From the NCBI GenBank assembly GCA_007128005.1, contig SKYF01000104.1:1232-65231 (forward strand): a DNA stretch of 64,000 nucleotides. The letters run 5' to 3'. The notes beneath the pieces are model-generated. The model saw only the letters and a list, made by a program, of their open reading frames with translations, had not been told where the DNA came from and ran no database searches. Both the position numbers and the translations under genes were made by a program. This document shows, piece after piece, positions 10,684-50,526 of this stretch; position 1 is the stretch's first letter; each line of letters begins with the position of its first letter. This DNA comes from Bdellovibrionales bacterium. Lineage in GTDB: Bacteria; Bdellovibrionota; Bdellovibrionia; Bdellovibrionales; UBA1609.

Positions 10684-13148
10684 CCGGGCAACTTTGCCCA
10701 GCTTTTATAAGGTATAAGGGACTTTTAGACGGCAAACAGCAAGGCCAGGGCCTAGATCCCTCTTCACCCTCTGCAGTTTTGAAAGAGTTTAGACTCATGC
10801 GTCACAAGCTCTGGCTGGGAGTTGCTGTTGAGTGCTTTGAAAACCATCGACCTCCCATGGAGATCTGCCAAGCCTGGACTCAATCTGCCGACCAAATCAT
10901 CCAGCAAGCCTGGGCTGAGGCCGGTTGCGATCGACTGCCCTTGAGTCTCTTTGCCATGGGCAAGCTCGGGGCCCAAGAGCTGAACTTGAGCTCTGATGTC
11001 GACTTAGTCGTTGTCAGCGCAACGACGGCAGAGCCCAACTGGGATCGCCCTTTGCGCCTATTCAACAACCTACTCAACCAGGTCAATGAATGGGGCTTTT
11101 GTCTGAGGACAGACTTTGATCTGAGACCTGGAGGCAGATTCAGTCCACTGATCACAAGCCTCGCACAGTTTGAAAACCACTACTGGAGCCAAGGGGAAAC
11201 ATGGGAGCGCCTTGCCCTCGTTAGACTCAGATTCCTAGCTGGCCACAGCAGCCTGGCTGAGAGTGTTCTCGAATTGGCTCATCGCTTCACCTATCGACGC
11301 TACCTGGATTATACTCTTTTTGAGGATCTCAAACAACTCAGGAGCCGTATCCACCGCCATCAAAACTCTCAAGCTCTGCAAAGCCCCAATGAGCCCATCC
11401 ATTTAAAGCTCGGGATTGGGGGCATTCGTGACATTGAGCTCTTTATCCACTCCCTTCAAGTCATTCATGGGGGGCGCCAGATTGAGCTCCGACAGACCTC
11501 CACTGACCAAGCCATTGATGCCCTCATCAGACACAAAATTTTACCTGAAGCTGACTTGGAGTTTTTACGTCAGGCCTATTGGCAGTTACGCGATTTTGAG
11601 AACCTCGCACAAATCCGAGAGGACCGACAGACTCACTTCTGGGACCCTCATATGAGCCTAGCACGCAAGCTCTATCCAAGCTACGAGCAGCTCCAAGAGC
11701 TTATGAAAAGTGTGGATCAAATTGTCTCCGACTTATTGGGAAGAGCCAAGTCCGAGTCTGATGATCTACCTATTGCTCTTGAACACCAACAAGACTGGCT
11801 CAGACAGATGGCCTATAGCCCGCACTCGGTTGAAGATATTTGGCCAGCACTCATTGACAAAGGTGTGCTGGCTCAGGACAAAAGCGCTCGGGAGCGCAAT
11901 GAATTGACCCGACGTCAGTTTTTAAAGGCATTTATCATAGCCTTGAACAAGATTGACTTAAATAAGGACCTAGGGCTCCACCTTCTTCTCGACTTTATTC
12001 GATCGACCAGAGCTAAAAGCTCATTTTTTAGTCTTCTCCTTAGAGAGCCCCGATTGATTGAGGATCTTGCACGACTCTTCTCCTCCTCTCCCTACTTGGG
12101 TGGCATCATCGCAAGGCGGCCTGAGCTTATAGACAGCTTTGTGCTGCGATACAGAGAAGCCTTCTCCGAGGATTTAGAACAGATGCTTGAGGAGATCACT
12201 GAGCACAAGCTGCTTGCGGAGATTTTCTCTGCCAATCGTTTCCTACAGGATTTTGATGTTCAAACTCTTATTCTCTCCCTCAGCGAGACAGCAGACCAAC
12301 TGGTTTCGGCTCTGCTGGTTAGACTCAAACAGGACTACCCTGGGTCAGGACTTGAAGTCCTGGCTCTTGGTAAATGGGGCGGCAGAGAAGTTGGTCTGCG
12401 CTCTGATTTAGACTTGATCTTTGTCTGCCCACAAAAGCCTCTAGCCGAGGATTACAAAGTGGCTCGACGGCTAATTTCTCGGCTCACAGAAGCCCACCGG
12501 GGGGGGCAGATTTACTCAGTCGACCTGCGATTGCGGCCCTCGGGAAGCTCTGGCCCCTTATTGGTTTCATTAGATGACCTAGGAAACTTTCTTCAACACG
12601 AGGCTGACCCCTGGCTCAGACAATCCTATTTGAAAGCGCGCTTTCTGTCCGGAAAAAGCGCCCAAAGCATTCACTCTCAAGTGATCAAACGGGGCTTAAA
12701 ATCCTCCGAGCTTTCTGAGCTCAAGAATATTCGGCAAAGGCTTTTAGCCACAACCTCTGATTCGACAAAGATAGATTTAAAAAAATCTCCTGGAGGCCTA
12801 ATTGACATCGAATTTGCCTGTCAAATTGCTTGCCTGACAGAGCAAATCCAGCCCAGCGATACCAGCACTCTGGCCCTGCTCGACAGCCTGGCCTTGACAC
12901 TTGGAGACTGGCGCTTAGAGGCCGCCGAGCTGAAAAAGATCTATCTCAAACTGCGTCGTACAGAACAGATTTTGCAGATCAGCACCAGTCATTCGGGCTC
13001 CATGCTGTGTCTAGACCAAGAGGAGTTTTCCACTGCAGCCAAACTGCAAAACGAAGCCCCTAAAGAGCTCTTTGAGAAAATCCGCAGATATTTAGCCCAT
13101 GGTCAAGAGATAGTCAAAAACCTTGACCCCATTTATCGGTCTCAGTAG
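10662..13148 (+). CDS. glnE: glutamine synthetase adenylyltransferase/adenylyl-removing enzyme GlnE
   Basis: Two nucleotidyltransferase modules ([19 protein letters not shown] and [19 protein letters not shown]) plus [14 protein letters not shown]. The start overlaps the tolB end by 22 nt. Confidence 0.85.
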
Positions 13149-24902: not shown

Positions 24903-25109
24903 ATGGCAAAAAAGAAAAAAGCAGTAAAGAAGACTGCTAAGAAGGCTACAAAAAAGGCCACTAAGAAGGCTACAAAAAAGGCCACTACTGCTAAAAAAGC
25001 TGCTAAAAAAGTAGTAAAAAAGGCTAAAAAGGCTGTAAAGAAGGCCACCAAGAAAGCCGGCTCTACTGTGAAGAAGGCTGCTAAGAAAGTATCTCGCAAG
25101 AAGAAGTAA
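24903..25109 (+). CDS. lysine/alanine-rich histone H1-like nucleoid protein
   Basis: 68 aa made almost entirely of KKA(T/V)KK repeats. Strong SD GAGGAGG 7 nt upstream and an intrinsic terminator directly downstream fix the strand. The antisense 84-aa ORF is a shadow. Confidence 0.85.
   Translation: MAKKKKAVKKTAKKATKKATKKATKKATTAKKAAKKVVKKAKKAVKKATKKAGSTVKKAAKKVSRKKK
24937..24984 (+). repeat. perfect 24-bp tandem duplication inside the H1-like gene
   Basis: CTAAGAAGGCTACAAAAAAGGCCA occurs at 24937-24960 and again at 24961-24984. Each unit encodes two KKAT-type repeats. Confidence 0.9.
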
Positions 25110-38166: not shown

Positions 38167-39000
38167 TTAGCTGGCATCCGTGGAGTTGCGAATCTGCAGA
38201 GCCTGAGTACCCAAAAAGTACAAAATCGCCAAAATAATCAAGGCGATGAGCATAAAGCGCAGCAGAACCCCAAAAGTCCAGGGCTCCATATCTTCACTGT
38301 CTTTGGCCACAGCAGGGGCCCTCTCTACTTTGATCAAATCCGGGCGCAGATTTTCTTCCTGTTCGCGCTTAAGAGGTGTCATGGGCCGTCTTTCACCCTG
38401 CTCAGGCAGTTTGCGCTCCTCCACCCAACCCATCTGACCGCCGCGAAGCCCCCGGCGGCGGGCCCCTGCTTGGTCGGACATTCCCGTGCCGGCAGACAAA
38501 AACCCCGTGCTTCCCGTGTATCGATCACGGCCGGCCTTTCCTCCCTCAGCCCCTGCCACCATGGTCCGCGGCCTGGAGCTTCGGCCATCAGAGACCCAGC
38601 CTCCGGGCTCTGAAGCCCGATCTCCTCCCGGGCCGGCTCTCACCCGCGCGGCCTCAATGTACTCCCTTCGACCACCATCCCCCTCTCCTCCAGCTCCACC
38701 AGACCCTGCACCACTGCCGTCCCCAGCCCCTGCTGTTCCTAGGCCTACATGAGGTCGGCCACTGGCCAATGAGAACTCGGCAAACTCCTGGTCACAGATT
38801 CCCTGAACTCCCCCTTGGGCCCCCAAGGAGGGCAGCTCCCCTGTCTCAAGAATGCAGGCCAAGTACTCCCCAAAATATCCTTGAGCCCACTGCCGAAAGG
38901 CATCGTTGAATTGATAGATCACCCCCATCATCACGACAAAGGTGATAACCAAAATCAGTAGGTACTCAAGCATGGCCTGCCCACTTTGAGAGTTTCTCAT
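38167..39000 (-). CDS. Flp/TadE-type leader protein with Gly/Arg-rich disordered body and C-terminal TM anchor
   Basis: The ATG at 39000 gives MRNSQSGQAMLEYLLILVITFVVMM, a class-III (G-xxxx-EY) prepilin motif. About 180 aa of G/R/A-rich low complexity follows, encoded by a visibly GC-rich stretch at about 38400-38760. It ends in the TM segment WTFGVLLRFMLIALIILAILYFLG. Divergent from flp. Confidence 0.6.
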   Translation of the reverse strand: MRNSQSGQAMLEYLLILVITFVVMMGVIYQFNDAFRQWAQGYFGEYLACILETGELPSLGAQGGVQGICDQEFAEFSLASGRPHVGLGTAGAGDGSGAGSGGAGGEGDGGRREYIEAARVRAGPGGDRASEPGGWVSDGRSSRPRTMVAGAEGGKAGRDRYTGSTGFLSAGTGMSDQAGARRRGLRGGQMGWVEERKLPEQGERRPMTPLKREQEENLRPDLIKVERAPAVAKDSEDMEPWTFGVLLRFMLIALIILAILYFLGTQALQIRNSTDAS

Positions 39001-39262
39001 ACCTCTGTCATCGGACACTGTCTCAAAAAAATTGAAAAAGTCTGTAAAAAGAGGCCATCCCACTTTGATTTGTCTCACTCTGAAACAAAATCGCCCTTCC
39101 AAGTGGTCCTGCGCTGTCTATGGAGTTGACAGTCAAAAAACAATTTTTGGTTTCTGAATATTTTGTGTTAATATTAAAAACAGTTCATCGCAGTGATTCC
39201 AGTCCCGTCGCCCTGACACGTCCTCCTGGAAGCACAAAAAGCCATAAAAAAACAAACGACTA

Positions 39263-39310: not shown

Positions 39311-39502
39311 ATGAAAAAGCTAAAGCAAACATTTCAACATCTCATTGAAGATGAGTCCGGACAAGGTGCCACAGAGTACATCCTTATTATGGTGATTGTT
39401 GTGGCTGTAGTCATCGCCTTCGGAGGAGAATTCAGAAACCGTGTTGTCGGAGCTGCCGAAAGTCTTGGCGCCCAAATCAGTGAAGCTATGAACTTTAGAT
39501 AA
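39311..39502 (+). CDS. flp: Flp-family type IVb pilin
   Basis: 63 aa with the Flp motif SGQGATEYILIMVIVVAVVIAF (G/ATEY processing site followed by a hydrophobic helix). Confidence 0.9.
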   Translation: MKKLKQTFQHLIEDESGQGATEYILIMVIVVAVVIAFGGEFRNRVVGAAESLGAQISEAMNFR

Positions 39503-39731: not shown

Positions 39732-40244
39732 ATGATTCATTCAGCAAGTCTATCCATTGTAGCTATTCCCGGATTGATTCTGCTCGCTGGAGTCATTGAT
39801 GACCTGCGCTCAAAAAAGATTCACAACAAACTTGTACTTGCAGCTTTTCTGCTGGCAGTGGTTAGCCAATCCGTGATTCACGGCTTAGGGGCCTTGCCAC
39901 AAGCGGGACTGGCTGTGGGAGCTGCTTTTTTTGTGAGCCTTCCCCTGGTTCTGGCTCGGGCTCTAGGAGCCGGAGATATGAAACTGCTAATGGCTCTGGC
40001 CCCACTTTTTTTATGGACAGATATCCTGTGGATGTTCTTTTACGCTCTCATCTGGGGCGCTCTTTTGGGAATCATTCGCTCCATGCTACAGGGCCAAGCA
40101 GGACAGCTTGTCAGGAACACCTTGGCGCTCACCGGACCCAATCGACCCGATCGCCAGTCTCTTCAGAGTATCCCTTTTTCCGTAGCTCTCCTCTTTGGCT
40201 GGATGACTCACTTGAGCTGGCTGCAAATGGGGGGGTATCTATGA
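39732..40244 (+). CDS. tadV: A24-family prepilin peptidase (TadV/CpaA)
   Basis: 170 aa, polytopic, with both catalytic Asp contexts (GVIDDLRSKKI and LGAGDMKLLMAL). Confidence 0.85.
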   Translation: MIHSASLSIVAIPGLILLAGVIDDLRSKKIHNKLVLAAFLLAVVSQSVIHGLGALPQAGLAVGAAFFVSLPLVLARALGAGDMKLLMALAPLFLWTDILWMFFYALIWGALLGIIRSMLQGQAGQLVRNTLALTGPNRPDRQSLQSIPFSVALLFGWMTHLSWLQMGGYL

Positions 40245-41632: not shown

Positions 41633-42475
41633 ATGAATCACAATGAAACTCGTACACTTTGGATCAGCATTTTCGCAGCCCTGTTTGCCGTTTTCCTGCT
41701 CTATAGCTACACTCAGGAAAAGAGCTCACAGCTGACTCGCCAATTTGGGGCCAAGCAGAGAGTGGTCATTGCCGCTGTGGATATCAACGAAATGCAGACC
41801 ATTGATGAGACCATGCTCCAAATTGTTGAGCGTCCCATTGATTTTGTACAGCCCAGCGCCTTTACTAACCCTGAAGCCGTGGTGGGAATGGTGGCCCTGG
41901 CTCCCATTCGTAAAGATGAACAAGTCCTAGAAAATAAGGTGATGGAGCCTGGCCCTTTGACTGGGCTATCCCTTCAAGTGGCTCCCACCCGGCGGGCCGT
42001 CACCATCCCCATTGATGAGATGCGCGGAGTGGCCAAGCTGATTAAGCCTGGGGATAGAGTGGACATCATCGCCGCCCTGGATGTGGGTCGAGGAGTCAAT
42101 CAGCGCCGAGAGGTGAAGACTCTAATGCAGGATGTAGTGATTCTGGCGACAGGCCTTCGTGTGGTCCATGAGCTACCCCGCCTGTACGAACTTCAGGGGC
42201 GTTCGGAATATGTGAGAAACCTGCGGGCCGACACCAACTTCTCAACCATTACCATTGAGGCCAGCCCCAAAGAGGCCCAGGATCTCATCTATATACTTTC
42301 AACATCACCGGCCTCCCTGTTTTTAACCCTGAGGCACCCCAGCGATCACCAGAAGTCCACACTTCCAGCAAGCACCATTGAGAGCGTTCTAGGCCAGGTC
42401 AATCCACCAGCTCTGCAGCAGGGGATACGCCAACCCGCAGCCAGTCCTGCAGGTCAGCCTAGGAGAGGAAGATAA
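41633..42475 (+). CDS. cpaB: Flp pilus assembly protein CpaB/RcpC
   Basis: N-terminal TM, a SAF-like segment (VVIAAVDINEMQTIDETML), and an RcpC-like region (VTIPIDEMRGVAKLIKPGDRVDIIA). Confidence 0.8.
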   Translation: MNHNETRTLWISIFAALFAVFLLYSYTQEKSSQLTRQFGAKQRVVIAAVDINEMQTIDETMLQIVERPIDFVQPSAFTNPEAVVGMVALAPIRKDEQVLENKVMEPGPLTGLSLQVAPTRRAVTIPIDEMRGVAKLIKPGDRVDIIAALDVGRGVNQRREVKTLMQDVVILATGLRVVHELPRLYELQGRSEYVRNLRADTNFSTITIEASPKEAQDLIYILSTSPASLFLTLRHPSDHQKSTLPASTIESVLGQVNPPALQQGIRQPAASPAGQPRRGR

Positions 42476-43944
42476 TGAGATTTTTATTACTTATATTTTT
42501 TATAATTCCCAGCCTGTCTGTGGCTCAAGCCAATAGATCAGGAACTGAAACCCGGGATATAGATCTCTATGTGGGACTACCTCACGATGAAACTCTTCCT
42601 CGTCTTCCTGGAAGCTTTGACCTCAGTGGTACCTATCGCTCGGTGACGCGAATTGAAACCCGACGAGGACAAAGCCAGCTGAGGTTTGTACCCACCAAAG
42701 AGGGCATTGGAACGGTTATTATTAAGGACAAAAACACCGGACAGATCGTCTATCAGCTCACTGTCAGAGTGGGCAAAACTGACCTGCAGCGAGTGGCTCG
42801 CGAAATCAGAAGCCTTCTGTCCACTATCGAGGGTGTTACTGTTCGAGTTTTGAACAACCGAGTCGTGGTCGATGGCCAAATCTTGCTTCCTTCGGATATG
42901 AAACGAATTCACAGTGTGGTCAAACAGTACGGTCCCCTGGCCACAACCCTAGTGACCCTAAGCCCCATTGCACAAAACAAGATTGCCGAGATCATTGAAA
43001 GAGACATCAACAATCCAGAAATCTACGTTCGAGCTGTCAACGGCAAATTTATCCTCGATGGAATGGCCAATAGCCCTGAGGAGAGAGATCGAGCTGAAAT
43101 TATAGCTAAGATGTATGTCCCCGACGTGGTGGTGGAAGAAGCCGTAGCCGATAAGAGGGTGTTGGAGCGAAGAACGGATGTCGTGATCAATTTAATCAAG
43201 ATCAAACAGGCCGCCGCTCCCGAACCAGAGAAGATCATCCAAATGGTGATTCACTTTGTGGAGCTGCAAAAGGATTACACCAGAGGCTTTCGCTTTCAGT
43301 GGACACCAGATATTGGCGATGGCTCTACCCTTCAATTCTCAACAGGAGGACGCTCTCCCGGAGGACTTGTGGGGACACTGACGGGAACCATCTCCAACCT
43401 GCTTCCTAAGCTCAACTGGGCCAAGCAACATGGCTTTGCCAGAGTCCTACAGAGTTCAAGTCTGATTGTCCAAGATGGCCGCCAGGGCACCCTGAACTCT
43501 CTGACCCGAGTCCCCTATCAGGTGATCAGCGCCACCGGTCAGCCGGGAACCAACTTTGAGGAAGTGGGCTTGAGAACCAATATCACTCCTCAGGTAATGG
43601 GGGCGCGGTCTGACAGCGTACGACTCGATATGAACTTTTCCGTCAAAAATCTGCTCAGCTACACAGACCAAGGTCCTCTGACCTCAAGTCGAGAGATCAA
43701 CACCATGATACATGTGCGCAGCGGCCAAAGTGCGGCCGTTGGGGGTCTTATTTCCAGCGACACGGGCACAAACTACAACAAACTGCCCTCCAATGCCTCG
43801 CAGAACCCGATCTTTAGCCTCTACGCCTCAAGGGACTTCCGCAACAATCAAAGCCAGTTTGTGGTCTTTGTCACTCCGAGCATTCGAGCCTCGGCCAGTC
43901 AGGGATCAGATCGAATCAAGCAGAAGTTCCGCCTCCCAGACTAA
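42475..43944 (+). CDS. cpaC: Tad secretin CpaC/RcpA
   Basis: Signal peptide and a C-terminal secretin domain (VRSGQSAAVGGLISSD...QFVVFVTPSI). Confidence 0.85.
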   Translation: MRFLLLIFFIIPSLSVAQANRSGTETRDIDLYVGLPHDETLPRLPGSFDLSGTYRSVTRIETRRGQSQLRFVPTKEGIGTVIIKDKNTGQIVYQLTVRVGKTDLQRVAREIRSLLSTIEGVTVRVLNNRVVVDGQILLPSDMKRIHSVVKQYGPLATTLVTLSPIAQNKIAEIIERDINNPEIYVRAVNGKFILDGMANSPEERDRAEIIAKMYVPDVVVEEAVADKRVLERRTDVVINLIKIKQAAAPEPEKIIQMVIHFVELQKDYTRGFRFQWTPDIGDGSTLQFSTGGRSPGGLVGTLTGTISNLLPKLNWAKQHGFARVLQSSSLIVQDGRQGTLNSLTRVPYQVISATGQPGTNFEEVGLRTNITPQVMGARSDSVRLDMNFSVKNLLSYTDQGPLTSSREINTMIHVRSGQSAAVGGLISSDTGTNYNKLPSNASQNPIFSLYASRDFRNNQSQFVVFVTPSIRASASQGSDRIKQKFRLPD

Positions 43945-44010: not shown

Positions 44011-46287
44011 GTGGCTGTGGCTCTACATCAAAACTGTCACCTAATCGGTGTTGTTGGCGGCAAGGGCGGGGTGGGAAAAAGCGTTTTTGCGGCCAATTTA
44101 GCCTGCGCCACCCTTCTTGAGATGCGAGCCAAGACCCTACTGATTGATCTAGACGCCAAGAGCTGCGGTGATCAAAGCATTATCTTGGGACTTCGCCCTC
44201 CCAAAAACATTATGGACATCACCAACTCTTCTGTTGCCGTGAACCCTCAGTCCTTGAGCAGCTTGGTAGGACAGCACCCCTCGGGGCTATCCTATATCAG
44301 TGCGGTCAGCAGCCCAGATCAGAGCTTGAATGTGGCCCCAGACCTACTGCGCAAACAGATTTTTTCCCTCAGCCATTTCTACAGCTTTATTATTGTGGAC
44401 CTGGGCTGTGATATCACCCCCGCACAGATGGCCATATTTCAAGATGCCAGTGCCGTTGTCTTGGTCACCACTCCCGAAGTATTGGTTGTCAATCAGACCC
44501 GTAAGCTGCTCAATGACATGATGGCCGCCACCCTTCCTGCTGAACTCTTTCAGGTGGTTTTAAACAAAGTCAGTCGCACCGGTTTAGATCCAAGGGCAAT
44601 TTCTCAAAGTCTCGGGCGGCCCATCATCGGATCCATACCCCAAGACGATATCACCGCCTACGCAGCTCTTCAGCGCTCCACTCCCTTTGTCATTGGGGCT
44701 CCCAACACTCCACTCAGCGCCGCGCACCACGAAGTGGTCCGCCGTCTGACAGGGGGTATCTTACAGAAACTCAAGGCTTTGAGCCGACCCCAACTGAAAT
44801 TTGGCTCTGAGAAGGCAGGAGGCTCCTCCGGCAAGTCCCTACCCACAAAAACTTCAGAGGGGCCTGCCACGAGGAGGGGGGTGTCCTCTGGCAAACAGCG
44901 AGACCCCATCACCCTACTCAAGCTGCAAATCCATAGCGAGCTGATCAAGGAGATGGATCTGAAGAAGGATGTCTCCAACACTCAAGGCGACCCCGAAAAG
45001 GAAAAAGAACTTAGACAAAAAACCCAGAGAGTCATCACTCAGGTGACCGACAAGCTGGGACAGGGTCTCTCCCGAGAGGAGCGCTCACGAGTGATTAAGG
45101 AAGTCCTGGATGAATCTTTGGGTCTAGGCCCCCTAGAGGACCTTCTGGCAGACCCCACAGTCACTGAGATTATGGTGAATGGAGCTGACAAGATCTATAT
45201 GGAAAAAAATGGCAAATTGACCTTGAGCCAAATCACCTTTACTTCGAATCTGCAACTGCGCAATGTGATTGAGAGAATCGTAACCCCCTTAGGGCGACGA
45301 ATTGATGAAAAGACCCCTTATGTGGATGCCAGGCTTGCTGACGGCAGCAGGGTCAATGCTGTCATCGAGCCCCTGTCCATTGATGGGCCAGCTGTCACTA
45401 TCCGTAAATTTCCCCAGGACCGCATCACGGCTGACGACTATGTCACACGCTTCAACTCTATGACCAAGCCGATGGTTGATTTTCTGAGAATCTGCATCGA
45501 ACAGGGCTTGAATGTGATTATATCTGGCGGCACGGGCTCCGGTAAAACAACTCTGCTCAATGTGCTTTCCGGCTTTATTCCGAGCAATGAGCGAATCATC
45601 ACCGTTGAAGACGCCGCCGAACTCCAGCTCAAACAGGAGCATGTGGTTCGGTTGGAAACTCGTCCCGCCAATATGGAGGGCACTGGGGAAATCTCGATCC
45701 GCGACCTGATCCGCAATTCTCTGAGGATGCGCCCGGACCGGATCGTGGTGGGCGAGTGTCGCGATGGGGCCGCACTCGACATGCTTGCAGCTATGAACAC
45801 CGGCCACGATGGTTCAATGACCACGGTTCACTCCAACAGCCCAAAGGAGGCCGTCAGCCGCCTGGAAACTCTGTGTCTGATGGCTGGAATGGAGTTGCCT
45901 GCCAAGGCTATCCGGGAGCAGATTTCTGGAGCCGTTGATTTGATCATTCAAATCAGTCGTCTCAGTGATGGCAGTAGAAAGATCACCAGTATCACCGAGG
46001 TCGTCGGCATGCAGGGCGATGCCATCACCCTTCAAGAGATCTTTCGCTTTAAAGAAGAGGGCTTTGATAAAAACCGAAAAATCATTGGCCGCTTTCAGCC
46101 CATGGGATTGATTCCCACATTTATTGAAAAATTTGAGCAGCGAGGTGTGATGATCCCTAGAAATCTCTTTACAGGGGAGGCCGGCGGTGGAGCCACGCAG
46201 ACTCCCTCTGGGCAAAAGCCAGGACCCCCACGATTCACTCCAGGAGCTCGCCCCCCGCTTAAGAAAGCCAGTGGAGGGGATAGCTGA
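44011..46287 (+). CDS. fused CpaE/TadZ-like ParA/MinD ATPase + CpaF/TadA secretion ATPase
   Basis: The N-terminal ~250 aa carry the deviant Walker [11 protein letters not shown] Ser/Gly/Lys-rich linker follows. The C-terminal ~430 aa are CpaF-like ([14 protein letters not shown], Walker [38 protein letters not shown]). The start may be the GTG at 44017, which has better SD spacing. Confidence 0.85.
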
Positions 46288-47168
46288 TGGTCAACTTCCT
46301 CGTCAGTAATGAGTTCTTGCTGATCCCCCTTTTCGCTGTGGCTGTCTTTGTGGTCTCCTATCTGAATCTTGACCGCATCCTTGATTTTCTACACCGCAAG
46401 AGCCTCGGCAGTCGGGAAGAGGTTTTGCGCCTAATGGACTTGATGTTCGTAGAGACCGACCGCAATAAAGTGACTCTTGCCATGCTGCTGATGAGCTTTG
46501 GACTCGGGGCTTTGTTTTTTTTGGTGGCTTGGCCCAATATCCTTGCAGGTTTCTTTTTTGGTAGTCTCATCACTATGATGGGCTGGTCCGTGCCCAAACT
46601 AGTGATCACGGCCCTTTGGCAGAATCGATGCAATACAGTTGTTGACCAGATGGTCGATGGTCTTACGATCATGGCCAATGGAGTCAAATCGGGTCTAAGT
46701 GTCACTCAGTCCATGGAGAGAGTGGTGGAGAGTATGGGAGGACCCTTAGGCCAGGAGTTTGGTCTTGTCCTCAAAAAAATTCGCCTTGGGATGACTTTAG
46801 AGGAAGCGCTCACTGAGTTTGCCGAACGCGTCCCTCAACAGGACGTTCAAATGTTTGTCACTGGCGTCAATATCCTTAAGGAAACTGGTGGGAATCTGGC
46901 TGAAACCTTTCAGACCATTGTGACGACAATCCGTGAGCGGCAAAAAATCCATAAAAAGATTAAGGCCATGACCCAAATGGCTACCACCCAGGCCATCATC
47001 ATTGTGATGGTGCCTTTTGTCCTGCTCGGTATCTTTGCCGTGGCAGACCCGGCCTACGTCAAGCCCCTTTTCACCTCGGTTTTAGGCTGGATTGCCCTGC
47101 TTTTAATACTCTTTTTGCAAGTAATCGGTGGAGTATTTATGAAAAAAATTGTTACAATTAAAGTGTAA
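46287..47168 (+). CDS. tadB: TadB-type T2SSF platform protein
   Basis: T2SSF cytoplasmic domain (ANGVKSGLSVTQSMERV...LGMTLEEALTEFAERV...LKETGGNLAETF) flanked by TM segments. ATGA overlap with the ATPase gene. Confidence 0.85.
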   Translation: MVNFLVSNEFLLIPLFAVAVFVVSYLNLDRILDFLHRKSLGSREEVLRLMDLMFVETDRNKVTLAMLLMSFGLGALFFLVAWPNILAGFFFGSLITMMGWSVPKLVITALWQNRCNTVVDQMVDGLTIMANGVKSGLSVTQSMERVVESMGGPLGQEFGLVLKKIRLGMTLEEALTEFAERVPQQDVQMFVTGVNILKETGGNLAETFQTIVTTIRERQKIHKKIKAMTQMATTQAIIIVMVPFVLLGIFAVADPAYVKPLFTSVLGWIALLLILFLQVIGGVFMKKIVTIKV

Positions 47169-47193
47169 GCGACAGTTCCTAAAGGAGTTAAAC

Positions 47194-48972
47194 ATGAAGT
47201 TTAATCTGCTCTTGTCCACGGTTTTTGGACTCTTTGTCTCTCAGGCCGCTCTTGGCCTTGTGGATATGAAAAATGCCAACTTTTCCACTACCTTTACGGA
47301 CATCCAAGTCCCTGGGTCGGGCTATGACCTGCGCATTCAGCGCACCTACAACAGCCGCACGATCTTTAGCGGAATTTTTGGCTATGGCTGGTGCTCAGAC
47401 TTTGAGACCAAGCTTCAGGTCACCGCTGAGGGCAACCTCATGGTCACCGAATGTGGTGGGGGACTGGAGATCAACTATACGGCTCAGGATTTTGACCCAA
47501 AGGCTGTGGGCAACACCATCAATACCATTCTCGCAGAAGTAAAAAAGCGCAACCCCAGTATGAGCGAGCAGGCCCTCAATAAGCTTCGCGAGGAAATGCA
47601 GACCAACCAGTTTTTAAGGGAAGAGTTTGCCAGACAGTTAAATCTCACTGGACAAGCCAGTCCGGGAACGAGGTATTCAGCAAGTGGCCGAGAAAGTGAA
47701 AATATCGTCCTGCGCGAAGGGGTTTACGTTCGCACACTTGATGATGGAAGTTTTGAGCGATTCAATCAAAATGGTCAGCTGATCCAGCTCAATGACCGAG
47801 CCGGAAACTACTTAAAAGTCGACTGGAATAACAACCAAATCACCCGCATCACTGACAACAATGGGCGCCAGCTAGTCTTTCACTACGATCCCAAGACAAG
47901 GCGAGTGGCTCGCATTACAGGCCCTGGAGAGCTCAGAGCCACTTATAAATTTGATAGTGAGAACCTGACTGAGGTCACCAATGCATGGAATGAGACCTTC
48001 AAATATAGGTATGATGATCTCCACAATATCGTGCGCATTGACTATCCGGACAAGACTTACCAGGAATTGAGGTACAATAGAGATCGAGATTGGGTGGTTG
48101 GTTTTAGGGATCGCCGGGGCTGCGTTGAAACCTACAATTATGAATCCAACCCCAGAGACCCTAACAATCACTTCTGGTCCACTGTCCAAAAGAAGTGTGG
48201 GGACGAAGTGGTCAACAACAGCCGCTATGAATTTTGGCACAGACCACGAACCGATGGGCCCGGACAGTATCTGCATCGCGTGCGCTCAGATAACAACGGT
48301 GTGATTACAGATATTGTCTACCACCCGGTTTTTGGACTGCCACTTTCAATTGTGAGGAATTCCGAGCGAACAACTTACACCTATAGAAACAACGGACAGG
48401 TGGCGACTAAAGAGGAACCTTTCCGGCATACGACTTTTGCTTATAAAAATCGGTGCAACAAGGTCTCAGACGTCCTCGTCCGCTATTTGGGGCCCGCGGA
48501 GGATCAACTGACCCCCGCCCAAAGGGCTCAGTTGCAGCAACAAAGAGAGGCCGCCAGTGTTGAGGGCAAAGGCAAAGCCACAGCTAAAGCCAGAGCAGAG
48601 ACTTTTCAGGGGCGCGAGGTCTTGAAGACAATCAGAACTCAATACGAGTACAACCATCCCCGTTGCTTTTTGGTCAGAGCAAGAAACTCAGAGGGTCAAA
48701 ATATCACCTTGGCCTATGATGGACGAGGACGCATCAACCGCATTCGCGATCAAGCTCGTAGGGAAATACGGATTGACTATGAGGAGCGCTTTGGCAAGCC
48801 CTCACGGGTGCACCGTCCGGGAATGGGGACCATGGTTGTGACCTACGGCCCTGACGGTGAGATCACCAATGTGGACAGTAAGGAGGGGCCCACCGTAGCC
48901 CTTCAGGTGGCAACTGTATTTAACGGCTTATTGGAAATGATCGCCCCCGCAGTGGGCGACACAAATATATAG
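47194..48972 (+). CDS. secreted YD/RHS-repeat protein (no recognisable toxin tip)
   Basis: ATG at 47194 after AAAGGAG, with a signal peptide (LFVSQAALG). Multiple YD repeats are present (VFHYDPKTRRVARITGPG, TYKFDSENLTEVTN, KYRYDDLHNIVRIDYPD). The track ORF start at 47149 lies inside tadB. Confidence 0.8.
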   Translation: MKFNLLLSTVFGLFVSQAALGLVDMKNANFSTTFTDIQVPGSGYDLRIQRTYNSRTIFSGIFGYGWCSDFETKLQVTAEGNLMVTECGGGLEINYTAQDFDPKAVGNTINTILAEVKKRNPSMSEQALNKLREEMQTNQFLREEFARQLNLTGQASPGTRYSASGRESENIVLREGVYVRTLDDGSFERFNQNGQLIQLNDRAGNYLKVDWNNNQITRITDNNGRQLVFHYDPKTRRVARITGPGELRATYKFDSENLTEVTNAWNETFKYRYDDLHNIVRIDYPDKTYQELRYNRDRDWVVGFRDRRGCVETYNYESNPRDPNNHFWSTVQKKCGDEVVNNSRYEFWHRPRTDGPGQYLHRVRSDNNGVITDIVYHPVFGLPLSIVRNSERTTYTYRNNGQVATKEEPFRHTTFAYKNRCNKVSDVLVRYLGPAEDQLTPAQRAQLQQQREAASVEGKGKATAKARAETFQGREVLKTIRTQYEYNHPRCFLVRARNSEGQNITLAYDGRGRINRIRDQARREIRIDYEERFGKPSRVHRPGMGTMVVTYGPDGEITNVDSKEGPTVALQVATVFNGLLEMIAPAVGDTNI

Positions 48973-49007
48973 ATTTTAATTTTTTGACTCTAAGGAGATA
49001 GAACAAT

Positions 49008-49361
49008 ATGAGATCCTCCCCTTTCCACTCAGTGCTTATCGCCACCTTGACTCTGATAGTTTTTCTCTCAGGACAGCTCGCCTTCGGCCAGCAACAGTCC
49101 TCTCGGCGGGGAGCTCCAGGTTCAACCGCCCAACAGGAACTCGATAGATATAGGGGGGGGCCCTCCAACCAGGATCTGTCCGGTCCACAGACCTACGCCG
49201 TCAGCACTGACCAGGATTCCTGCACCGATAAGAGATACTGCCAGGGACGGGTCAACTCCACCGGAAGATTTCACAGCCAAAGCAGAGCCATGGAGCAAGT
49301 CAGACTTTATTTGGGTGAGGGCGCAAAACCTGGTCCAGACGGCTCAGAGACAGTTGAGTAG
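49008..49361 (+). CDS. small secreted protein, hit-locus (Bd0108)-like by position
   Basis: SD AAGGAG upstream and a signal peptide (LTLIVFLSGQLAFG). The mature part is Q/S/G/D-rich. It contains ACCAGGAT at 49168 and 49210 (42-bp spacing) and a G8 run at 49153-49160. Confidence 0.65.
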   Translation: MRSSPFHSVLIATLTLIVFLSGQLAFGQQQSSRRGAPGSTAQQELDRYRGGPSNQDLSGPQTYAVSTDQDSCTDKRYCQGRVNSTGRFHSQSRAMEQVRLYLGEGAKPGPDGSETVE

Positions 49362-49381
49362 CTCCGGTACAGTCGGCCAAT

Positions 49382-49402
49382 AGTGTCTCAAGATGAGACA
49401 CT
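49382..49402 (+). terminator. hairpin 20 nt after the small secreted gene (possible terminator, no U-tract)
   Basis: Perfect 9-bp stem AGTGTCTCA/TGAGACACT with a 3-nt loop. Confidence 0.35.
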
Positions 49403-49514
49403 GGGCTCAAGAGCGTCCCTGCACTGTCGAATATCTGGACAGTTTACAGCCTAGATGAAATTATAAATGCTTAATTTTATTATGATTTTTGTGTCTCCCC
49501 TCACTGTCTAGAGG

Positions 49515-49530
49515 TGGCACACTTCTGGCT
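49515..49530 (+). promoter_or_regulatory. sigma-54-like -24/-12 element
   Basis: TGGCAC-ACTTC-TGGCT compared with the consensus TGGCAC-N5-TTGC(A/T). GG and GC are correctly spaced, with one mismatch in the -12 box. It lies 42 nt upstream of the ATG at 49572. Confidence 0.35.
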
Positions 49531-49571
49531 ATAGAGTAAGGTAAGTGCTCATTAAAGGAAAGGAGCTGAAT

Positions 49572-49811
49572 ATGAAAACCTCAACTCTACTGATAGCCCT
49601 GATGTTAGGTTTGGCTGCAGGACCTGCCATGGCGGCCTCCCATAATAACCTTCAAGCTGTGAATGGAAAAGGTGCTGACAACTGCCCCTACAAAGCCGCT
49701 GCATCCAGAGATGAAAACCGAGCTCAGGCAAGAGAGCTAGCCTCAAGGTTGATCCAGCCTGGCCGCCCTCAATCTCGCCAACAGCAAAACTCTCGCACTA
49801 TTCGCAATTAA
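49572..49811 (+). CDS. small secreted hypothetical protein
   Basis: The ATG at 49572 follows AAAGGAAAGGAG. Signal peptide MKTSTLLIALMLGLAAGPAMA. 79 aa, with a basic, Q-rich C-terminus. Confidence 0.55.
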   Translation: MKTSTLLIALMLGLAAGPAMAASHNNLQAVNGKGADNCPYKAAASRDENRAQARELASRLIQPGRPQSRQQQNSRTIRN

Positions 49812-50149
49812 GGCTCTTGTTCCAGCTGATCTTCTTGAAAAAAGAAGTCCGTTGAGCCTTGGTAAAGCTCCTGTGCCTGGCTCTTGAGATATTGACTGCT
49901 GCGCTCAAGTTTGAGTTCAAGTCGTCGCTGAGTGGCCTGTGTGGTACGAGTTGTGGCTTTCCCCCAAAGGTTTTGCACAAGCAACACTGCTCCCTGAGCC
50001 ACCGACTCCACAGGTTGCACCAGACTCGATTGGCGAGCCCAGCTCAAGGCCCTCTCCTCTAGAGTCTGGGGGCCAATTCTTATCTGCAGCAATATAATAA
50101 TAAAAAATGTAAGTGCTATACTTTTAAAGAAAAAAAATAGACTTCCCAT
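49808..50149 (-). CDS. single-pass membrane hypothetical protein
   Basis: N-terminal TM (FFFFKSIALTFFIIILLQI). The start overlaps the CheY-like stop (TGATG) and is preceded by GGGGGGGGAG. Confidence 0.5.
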   Translation of the reverse strand: MGSLFFFFKSIALTFFIIILLQIRIGPQTLEERALSWARQSSLVQPVESVAQGAVLLVQNLWGKATTRTTQATQRRLELKLERSSQYLKSQAQELYQGSTDFFFQEDQLEQEP

Positions 50150-50526
50150 CAGATCTCCCCCCCCTGTTGCACGGCTTTTTCAATGGCTTGAACCAGGTCT
50201 TTGGCCTCAAATGGTTTAGTCACATAATGACAGCATCCAGCCTCAATTGCCTTTAACATCATCGTCTCCTGATCGAGGGTGGAGCAGGCAATGACCTTAA
50301 CTCGAGGCTGCCTTTTAACAATCTCCGTGGTGGCTTCAACGCCACTTTTTTTTGGCATCACTAAGTCCATAAGAATGACATCTGGCTTGAGCTGCTCCGC
50401 CAATTCCACTGCCTCAACTCCGTCTTGGGCCTCCCCTACAATGACAAAGCCCCGTGGTTCTAAGAGCTCTTTTAAAAGCTCTCGGATAAAAGGGGCATCA
50501 TCTGCAATCAATATACGAATAGACAT
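50149..50526 (-). CDS. single-domain CheY-like response regulator
   Basis: Receiver motifs ILIADDAPFIRE, the phospho-acceptor context DVILMDLVMP, and a conserved T/K context (IACST.., YVTKPF). Confidence 0.9.
   Translation of the reverse strand: MSIRILIADDAPFIRELLKELLEPRGFVIVGEAQDGVEAVELAEQLKPDVILMDLVMPKKSGVEATTEIVKRQPRVKVIACSTLDQETMMLKAIEAGCCHYVTKPFEAKDLVQAIEKAVQQGGEI

Follow-up and report, generated by a model that had tools for sequence, protein, structure and literature searches.

A putative ortholog of the host-interaction (hit) locus at the far end of a flp/tad cluster in an uncultured Bdellovibrionales bacterium

A 64-kb stretch of contig SKYF01000104.1 (the window, that is, the whole stretch of DNA that was analyzed) contains a complete flp/tad cluster, comprising genes for a Flp-like pilin, an A24 prepilin peptidase, a CpaB/RcpC protein, a secretin, a TadZ-TadA fusion, and TadB. 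Two further genes follow on the same strand, at the cluster's far end (Table 1). The first encodes a secreted YD/RHS-repeat protein (the YD protein) and has its start codon 25 bp past the end of tadB, while the second is an open reading frame (ORF) of 117 aa that starts 35 bp past the YD stop codon. Within this small gene, an 8-bp direct repeat, ACCAGGAT, occurs twice at a spacing of 42 bp and is preceded by a run of eight G residues (G8). The two genes had been singled out by an earlier reading of the DNA made from its letters alone (the sequence-only reading), and the coordinates that it gave for both genes, both repeat copies, and the G8 run were all correct when read from the sequence. It had described a module resembling the Bdellovibrio bacteriovorus host-interaction (hit) locus, and it had proposed that the geometry of the repeat marks a conserved, built-in switch between predatory and prey-independent growth. 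A counterpart of the B. bacteriovorus arrangement of tadB, a Bd0109-type YD gene, and a gene for a small secreted protein was indeed found, and conservation of the switch was not.

In B. bacteriovorus, the flp/tad (type IVb pilus) cluster bd0110-bd0119 has at its end the YD-repeat gene bd0109 and, beside that, the hit gene bd0108 (Cotter & Thomashow 1992; Capeness 2013, PMC3818213; Prehna 2014, PMC4267844). Its product, Bd0108, is a small secreted and intrinsically disordered protein of 101 aa (PMC3818213; PMC4267844). A 42-bp deletion in bd0108, which has 10-bp direct repeats on its flanks and removes residues 73-86, was present in 25 of 54 (46%) host-independent isolates, and frameshifts accounted for a further 35% (PMC3818213, PMC4267844, PMC3013116). 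The sequence-only reading had described this literature accurately, including the deletion between direct repeats.

The window locus was compared with 80 Bdellovibrionales loci, which were returned when each GTDB species was scanned through a single genome, among them the B. bacteriovorus loci of strains YOA24 (L032), Bd16 (L039), and s4 (L041). Strain HD100 was not among the 80 loci, and its perfect 10-bp repeat was checked only against the literature and the near-identical YOA24 gene. A total of 682 homologs of the YD protein were found, sharing the DUF6531 and RHS_repeat domains. The family has a length of 550-590 aa, and its nearly invariant C-terminus is among its most conserved parts. 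The window YD protein shared an identity of 44-45% with those of the three B. bacteriovorus loci across residues 1-589, which is its full length, and positions 47257-47286 agreed at all but two of 30 bases with the 3' part (LVDMKNANYS) of the primer published for Bd0109 expression. Gene order was retained as well. In 78 of the 80 loci with enough flank, B. bacteriovorus included, tadB was found immediately 5' of the YD gene and in the same orientation, and the order of TadZ/A, secretin, and CpaB was kept in related loci. Additionally, a response-regulator homolog was identified in 60 loci, and in all ten of those listed it was located downstream of the YD gene on the opposite strand, in a convergent orientation. 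The window therefore shares with the B. bacteriovorus hit locus the full order and strand of flp to cpaB, secretin, tadA, tadB, the YD gene, the gene for a small secreted protein, and the convergent response regulator. From these sequence comparisons, the YD gene is assigned as the ortholog of bd0109, and the locus is a predicted ortholog of the B. bacteriovorus hit locus.

Since the YD protein is no more similar than this to its B. bacteriovorus counterparts, and since the Tad proteins of the same three loci are only 52-61% identical to those of the window, the source organism is classified, on protein identities, as an uncultured Bdellovibrionales bacterium, known only from metagenome assemblies, and not as B. 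bacteriovorus. The nearest locus among species representatives was L055 (SKLV01000065, from the metagenome-assembled genome (MAG) CSSed162cmA_222), with an identity of 78% for the YD protein, 82-88% for the Tad proteins, and 52% for the small protein. This closest species-representative relative is a MAG from Siberian soda-lake sediment, its sample name occurring in a Siberian soda-lake paper (PMC6704655). The 117-aa protein itself was present on eight contigs, and the places shown for it were two ENA assemblies, three Logan runs, and the NCBI MAG GCA_007133345.1.

A good ribosome-binding site (AAGGAGA) precedes the 117-aa ORF, whose product has a Sec-type N-terminus (MRSSPFHSVLIATLTLIVFLSGQLAFG|QQQ), with signal peptides judged by eye throughout. 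The protein contains a central Cys pair (C72-x5-C78) followed by a charged, Gly-rich tail. In 74 of 79 loci, the YD gene had directly 3' of it a small ORF encoding a signal peptide and a Cys pair; these slot genes mostly encode 85-120 aa, and many of the products have a tail rich in Gly, Ser, Thr, and Lys. In the YOA24 locus, the small protein holds all residues published for Bd0108 (N32, D36, A52, C56xxC59, R81, K84, and Q101). Disorder-promoting residues, as judged by composition only, make up 81% of the mature window protein and 86% of Bd0108, while the charge-hydropathy (Uversky) test for disorder did not discriminate, as the YD protein too was scored as 'disordered'. The small gene has also evolved faster than its neighbors: between the window and L055, its nonsynonymous divergence (dN) was 0.43, compared to 0.09-0.15 for the Tad and YD genes, a difference of three to four times. 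It nevertheless remains constrained, with a proportion of nonsynonymous differences (pN) of 0.33 below the synonymous proportion (pS) of 0.72. A signal peptide, a disorder-promoting composition, a central Cys pair, and an evolution faster than that of the neighboring genes are all shared with bd0108, and the 117-aa gene is a fast-evolving positional counterpart of it. In contrast to Bd0108, the window protein has a C-x5-C pair instead of CxxC, is 117 aa long instead of 101 aa, and lacks the conserved Bd0109-binding motif NPGEDPNEA.

A full phmmer search of 1.84 billion representatives identified a single relative of the 117-aa protein, P0122, which is of the L055 type and 52% identical. Two long repetitive proteins in the same output were taken as low-complexity matches and not as relatives. 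A word-indexed search of 5.8 billion proteins returned only the protein itself. Comparable situations have been described in other predators. In B. exovorus (A11Q_2207/2208) and Bacteriovorax marinus (BMS_0182-0184), Bd0109 homologs are found beside unrelated small signal-peptide proteins (PMC4267844), and beside the Bd0109 homologs of activated-sludge Bdellovibrionales MAGs, short genes occur in arrays of 2-3 (PMC10469934). The window locus resembles these in that its Bd0109 homolog precedes one or two short secreted proteins that show little or no similarity to Bd0108. It differs in belonging to another lineage, related to the soda-lake MAG, and in having a small protein with a single known ortholog. 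The conservation of the module in other Bdellovibrionales was already published (PMC4267844; PMC10469934). A second small ORF with a signal peptide and a good ribosome-binding site was observed 3' of the 117-aa gene, and its sole homolog was found in L055 (55-57% identity). Comparable second small secreted ORFs were present in L022 (8051-8290) and L024 (3380-3646), and these second ORFs fit the published arrays of short genes.

Both copies of ACCAGGAT in the small gene are in one codon phase with a period of 42 bp, reading A|AC CAG GAT (N-Q-D) and G|AC CAG GAT (D-Q-D), and the match is limited to 8 bp, the flanks being unlike (CCAACCAGGATCT versus CTGACCAGGATTC). As the sequence-only reading had predicted, deleting one copy together with the spacer would remove 14 codons in frame; the resulting product would have 103 aa (...GGPSNQDSCTDK...), and the predicted allele (delta-42) would carry the junction CCCTCCAACCAGGATTCCTGCACC. 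On the sequence-only reading, the repeat pair would be a selected deletion hotspot, in which frequent loss of the 14 codons would lead to prey-independent growth in the manner of the delta-42 allele of B. bacteriovorus. An exact in-frame 8-bp repeat at exactly 42 bp in a gene of the Bd0108 slot speaks for such a hotspot, as do the probability of this spacing under codon shuffling (P ~0.005 for the window gene) and the share of the deletion between 10-bp repeats among the 109J host-independent isolates (46%).

The comparison with relatives pointed in the other direction. The repeat is missing from L055, the sole known ortholog, where the codons read GAC CAG GAC ... GAT GCT GAC and the two sites, ACCAGGAC and ATGCTGAC, agree at five of eight bases, the site of the second ACCAGGAT copy reading GATGCTGAC. 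Synonymous sites between the window and L055 are saturated, so the repeat would survive only under selection, and in L055 it did not survive. The position in the protein differs as well. The window repeat occupies codons 54-70, N-terminal to C72/C78 and in a part corresponding in the alignment to the half of Bd0108 that binds Bd0109, whereas the HD100-type repeat of the YOA24 gene is located in the C-terminal tail, at K70GS and K84GS, C-terminal to the Cys pair C56/C59. An 8-bp repeat before the Cys pair thus contrasts with the 10-bp repeat after it in HD100 and 109J. Furthermore, in the YOA24 gene (L032 7669-7974, gene nucleotides 207 and 249) the 10-bp repeat is itself imperfect, with CAAAGGCTCC and CAAGGGCTCC matching at 9 of 10 bases, and hence the classical hotspot is not conserved even among strains named B. 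bacteriovorus. Further near-repeats of 9/10 at a spacing of 42 bp were found at assorted positions in L039, L073, and L082, those of L073 and L082 at unrelated sites. Because the repeat is already imperfect in YOA24, it is probably by accident that the HD100/109J sequence contains the familiar 42-bp deletion hotspot, which does not look like a designed switch.

An excess of such repeats was not observed across the family. Chance expectations were obtained from codon shuffles, counting in-frame direct repeats of at least 8 bp with a spacing of 12-120 bp. For the window small gene alone, the probability of any such repeat was 0.26. Among the 74 slot genes, 16 contained one, compared to 14.6 expected, and a single repeat at a spacing of 42 bp was observed, compared to 0.51 expected. 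The 64-kb window as a whole included 107 in-frame direct repeats within the same limits, four of them at a spacing of 42 bp. A tandem-repeat stretch at 24937-25045, with periods of 12, 24, and 21 and units of the AAAAAAGGC type, was the source of two of these four, and this stretch is probably Lys/Ala-rich if translated.

The deletion allele was likewise not encountered. The contigs that carry the adjoining genes were looked up, and the assembled copies compared came from five samples and one NCBI MAG. Seven assembled copies spanning the small gene were 100% identical to the window over 47000-49900, all with exactly G8, and an exact-sequence look-up of the delta-42 product and of the products of G7 and G9 alleles in a collection of 15 billion proteins, which includes assemblies of the same runs, returned none of them. 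There is also no mechanistic reason to preserve 42 bp where neither sequence nor position is preserved. A selected hotspot is thus considered very unlikely. The claim that the same geometry denotes a conserved switch was not supported, given the absence of both features from L055, the different position in the protein, the lack of an excess among slot genes, and the recovery of the intact allele only; the repeat with its 42-bp spacing and the G8 run are best explained as incidental lineage features and not as a conserved or selected switch, with the exact value of 42 as an isolated coincidence.

The G8 run allows two further proposals. According to one, the slot gene of this soda-lake lineage would have independently gained the G8 run and, 8 nt downstream, the repeat, so that predatory and prey-independent growth would be exchanged at high frequency and in part reversibly; such mutability, convergent with that of the B. 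bacteriovorus locus, is also very unlikely. The window resembles contingency loci and short-repeat slippage deletions in that the repeat and the G8 run are both possible substrates of slippage. In contrast to contingency loci, these features are neither conserved nor enriched in the family, they are invariant among the assemblies, and no sign of selection for mutability was observed. According to the other proposal, G8 alone would be a lineage-specific phase-variation tract, in which the small protein would be cut short or reframed ahead of its Cys pair by reversible +1/-1 slippage, toggling the lifestyle. The tract does lie inside the gene, and by computation a G9 allele would give a truncated product of 67 aa and a G7 allele an out-of-frame product of 124 aa. 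It is the sole G/C run of at least 7 among the 74 slot genes, the YD genes (131 kb) have none, and 35% of the hit mutations of the 109J host-independent isolates are frameshifts. However, the tract is absent from L055, where the site reads CTG GGA GGG (CTGGGAGGG). The 64-kb window contains four G/C runs of this length or longer (at least 8), the other three at 12499, 50157, and 58901, one such run would be expected by chance in about 0.3 of the 74 slot genes, and these genes show no homopolymer excess. Eight residues are at the lower edge of the tract lengths known for phase variation, every assembled copy carried exactly G8, and the protein collection contained neither the G7 nor the G9 product. 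Phase variation by this tract is therefore regarded as very unlikely.

The YD protein was also examined for a relationship to polymorphic toxins. Its AlphaFold (AF2) model had a predicted local distance difference test (pLDDT) value of 83 and formed a YD beta-sheet, a fold that is shared with the Rhs effectors of type VI secretion systems (T6SS), the Tc toxin BC components, and the teneurins. The best PDB matches in a Foldseek search were Rhs cores of about 1000 residues, with E-values down to 5e-24 and template-modelling (TM) scores of 0.17-0.46, which are low because the YD protein is about half their length. Unlike these shell proteins, it lacks a toxin domain, has a Sec signal peptide, and is encoded in a pilus operon, and the DPxGL autoproteolysis motif was found neither in its 592 aa nor in the family. 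The YD protein is thus beta-rich and secreted or periplasmic, about half as long as a closed Rhs cocoon, and its conserved C-terminus is no toxin, in agreement with the earlier description of a YD protein directly after tadB without a toxin tip. An Rhs/YD polymorphic toxin with its immunity protein, which the RHS_repeat Pfam matches, the T6SS Rhs cores as top structural matches, and the small gene directly 3' might recall, is hardly credible against the half length and low TM-scores, the missing motif, a highly conserved C-terminus that is not a variable tip, a small protein whose signal peptide and disorder-prone composition are unlike those of a cytoplasmic immunity protein, and the invariable location of the pair within a tad operon. 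The linker at residues ~435-480 of the YD protein was observed to be longer, helical, and rich in Gln, Ala, and Lys in the window and L055 relative to other family members, with low pLDDT at residues 461-465.

Taken as a whole, the window genes are very probably the far end of a flp/tad operon that is orthologous to the hit locus, with the 117-aa gene as the positional counterpart of bd0108 and with the repeat and G8 run as incidental features. By analogy with B. bacteriovorus, the small protein may act outside the cytoplasm by binding the YD protein, either in the periplasm or at the cell wall. The complex of the two would tune pilus extrusion and retraction and, through these, the choice between predatory and prey-independent growth, and if the small protein were lost or altered, prey-independent growth would be released, as in B. 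bacteriovorus. Rare deletions or frameshifts by replication slippage are possible wherever an 8-bp repeat is found 42 bp apart or a G8 run is present, and in the window gene either feature could now and then yield one, as in any gene. Were prey-independent growth selected in this organism, mutations at the repeat and the G8 run might come to dominate, simply as these are the sites of a small target that are most prone to slippage.

Several points weigh against this explanation. The relationship of the small protein to Bd0108 was not recovered by profile methods. A comparison of the window-protein cluster with the Bd0108 cluster by hhalign gave a probability of 92% with full-length profiles, which depended on the signal peptide; with signal peptides removed, the score was 12 (P = 0.05; four of 200 column permutations reach it) and the alignment was limited to the Cys-pair region, so that the apparent match was lost. 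Similarly, iteration of a hidden Markov model (HMM) of mature Bd0108 ended with 17 Bdellovibrio loci, without picking up the window protein. Homology of the 117-aa sequence to Bd0108 cannot be demonstrated from these alignments, and its function is for this reason assigned by position and architecture only. The kinship that the sequence-only reading had suggested to the two B. bacteriovorus proteins was thus confirmed for Bd0109, by full-length identity and synteny, and not for the mature region of Bd0108. In addition, the spacing of exactly 42 bp, with its low probability under codon shuffling of the small gene, is a real coincidence with the published number. The search for deletion and G-tract variants was a weak test, as assemblies represent a consensus in which rare variants are invisible, and the samples seem to come from very few sites. 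Finally, the YD interaction, the pilus effect, and the lifestyle phenotype are carried over from B. bacteriovorus to an organism that is uncultured.

Table 1. Genes and sequence features at the flp/tad and YD locus. Numbering gives positions in the 64-kb window, and Pfam matches are from a scan of the window ORFs.
Feature	Position	Strand	Evidence
Flp-type pilin gene, first of the flp/tad cluster	39311..39502	+	Pfam Flp1_like, E 1e-5 (under the curated cut-off), and position heading the tad genes
Prepilin peptidase (TadV/CpaA-like)	39732..40244	+	Pfam Peptidase_A24, E 6e-12
CpaB/RcpC pilus assembly protein	41633..42475	+	Pfam RcpC, SAF; order shared with related loci
Secretin (RcpA/CpaC-like)	42475..43944	+	Pfam Secretin, E 2e-22
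TadZ-like (ParA/CbiA)-TadA secretion ATPase fusion	44011..46287	+	Pfam CbiA residues 13-219, T2SSE residues 371-657
TadB-type inner-membrane platform protein	46287..47168	+	Pfam T2SSF, E 7e-20
Predicted Bd0109 ortholog, secreted YD/RHS-repeat protein, 592 aa	47194..48972	+	Pfam DUF6531 and RHS_repeat
Small secreted Cys-pair protein, 117 aa, in the Bd0108 slot	49008..49361	+	ORF with ribosome-binding site and signal-peptide-like N-terminus
G8 homopolymer (codons R49-G50-G51; AGG GGG GGG)	49153..49160	+	Read from sequence
8-bp direct repeat ACCAGGAT, copy 1 (codons 54-56, NQD)	49168..49175	+	Read from sequence
8-bp direct repeat ACCAGGAT, copy 2 (codons 68-70, DQD)	49210..49217	+	Read from sequence
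Second small signal-peptide ORF, 80 aa	49569..49811	+	ORF scan
Response-regulator gene, convergent, bounding the slot	50149..50526	-	Pfam Response_reg

Other features of the locus were noted in the same scans. A single ORF of 758 aa encodes both the TadZ-like ParA/CbiA domain and the T2SSE ATPase TadA, and related loci align along it. Divergent from the flp gene, an ORF of 311 aa on the reverse strand (38167-39102) has a low-complexity center rich in Gly, Ala, and Arg and hydrophobic ends. An Rfam scan of the window identified two transfer RNAs, none of them close to the YD and small genes, and a scan for promoters and terminators gave no signal exceeding the shuffle background. A hairpin with a 9-bp stem (AGUGUCUCA AGA UGAGACACU) was observed at 49382-49402, just 3' of the stop codon of the 117-aa gene and without a T tract, and its folding energy was no better than that of shuffles (z = -0.85). 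A scan of 47-50 kb for tandem repeats found none in the small gene and one weak 12-bp array at 48574-48596, in the variable linker of the YD gene. Among the comparison loci, a whole Bdellovibrio-type locus of tadB, bd0109, and small gene was also present on contigs of MAGs labelled 'Bacillota bacterium' (L038, JBLMWG010000151.1) and 'Streptomyces griseus' (L072, CALQIT020000003.1), both of which are probably mis-binned; the small protein of the former has the Bd0108 motifs NPGEDPNEA and CKEC.

The value of the result is comparative, as the locus adds a new member to a known and already surveyed module. The arrangement of tadB, a Bd0109 homolog, and a small secreted protein holds in at least 74 species-level Bdellovibrionales genomes, while divergence of the small protein is so rapid that, by sequence, Bd0108 can be recognized only within Bdellovibrio proper. 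These observations support a conservation of the slot rather than of the sequence that occupies it.

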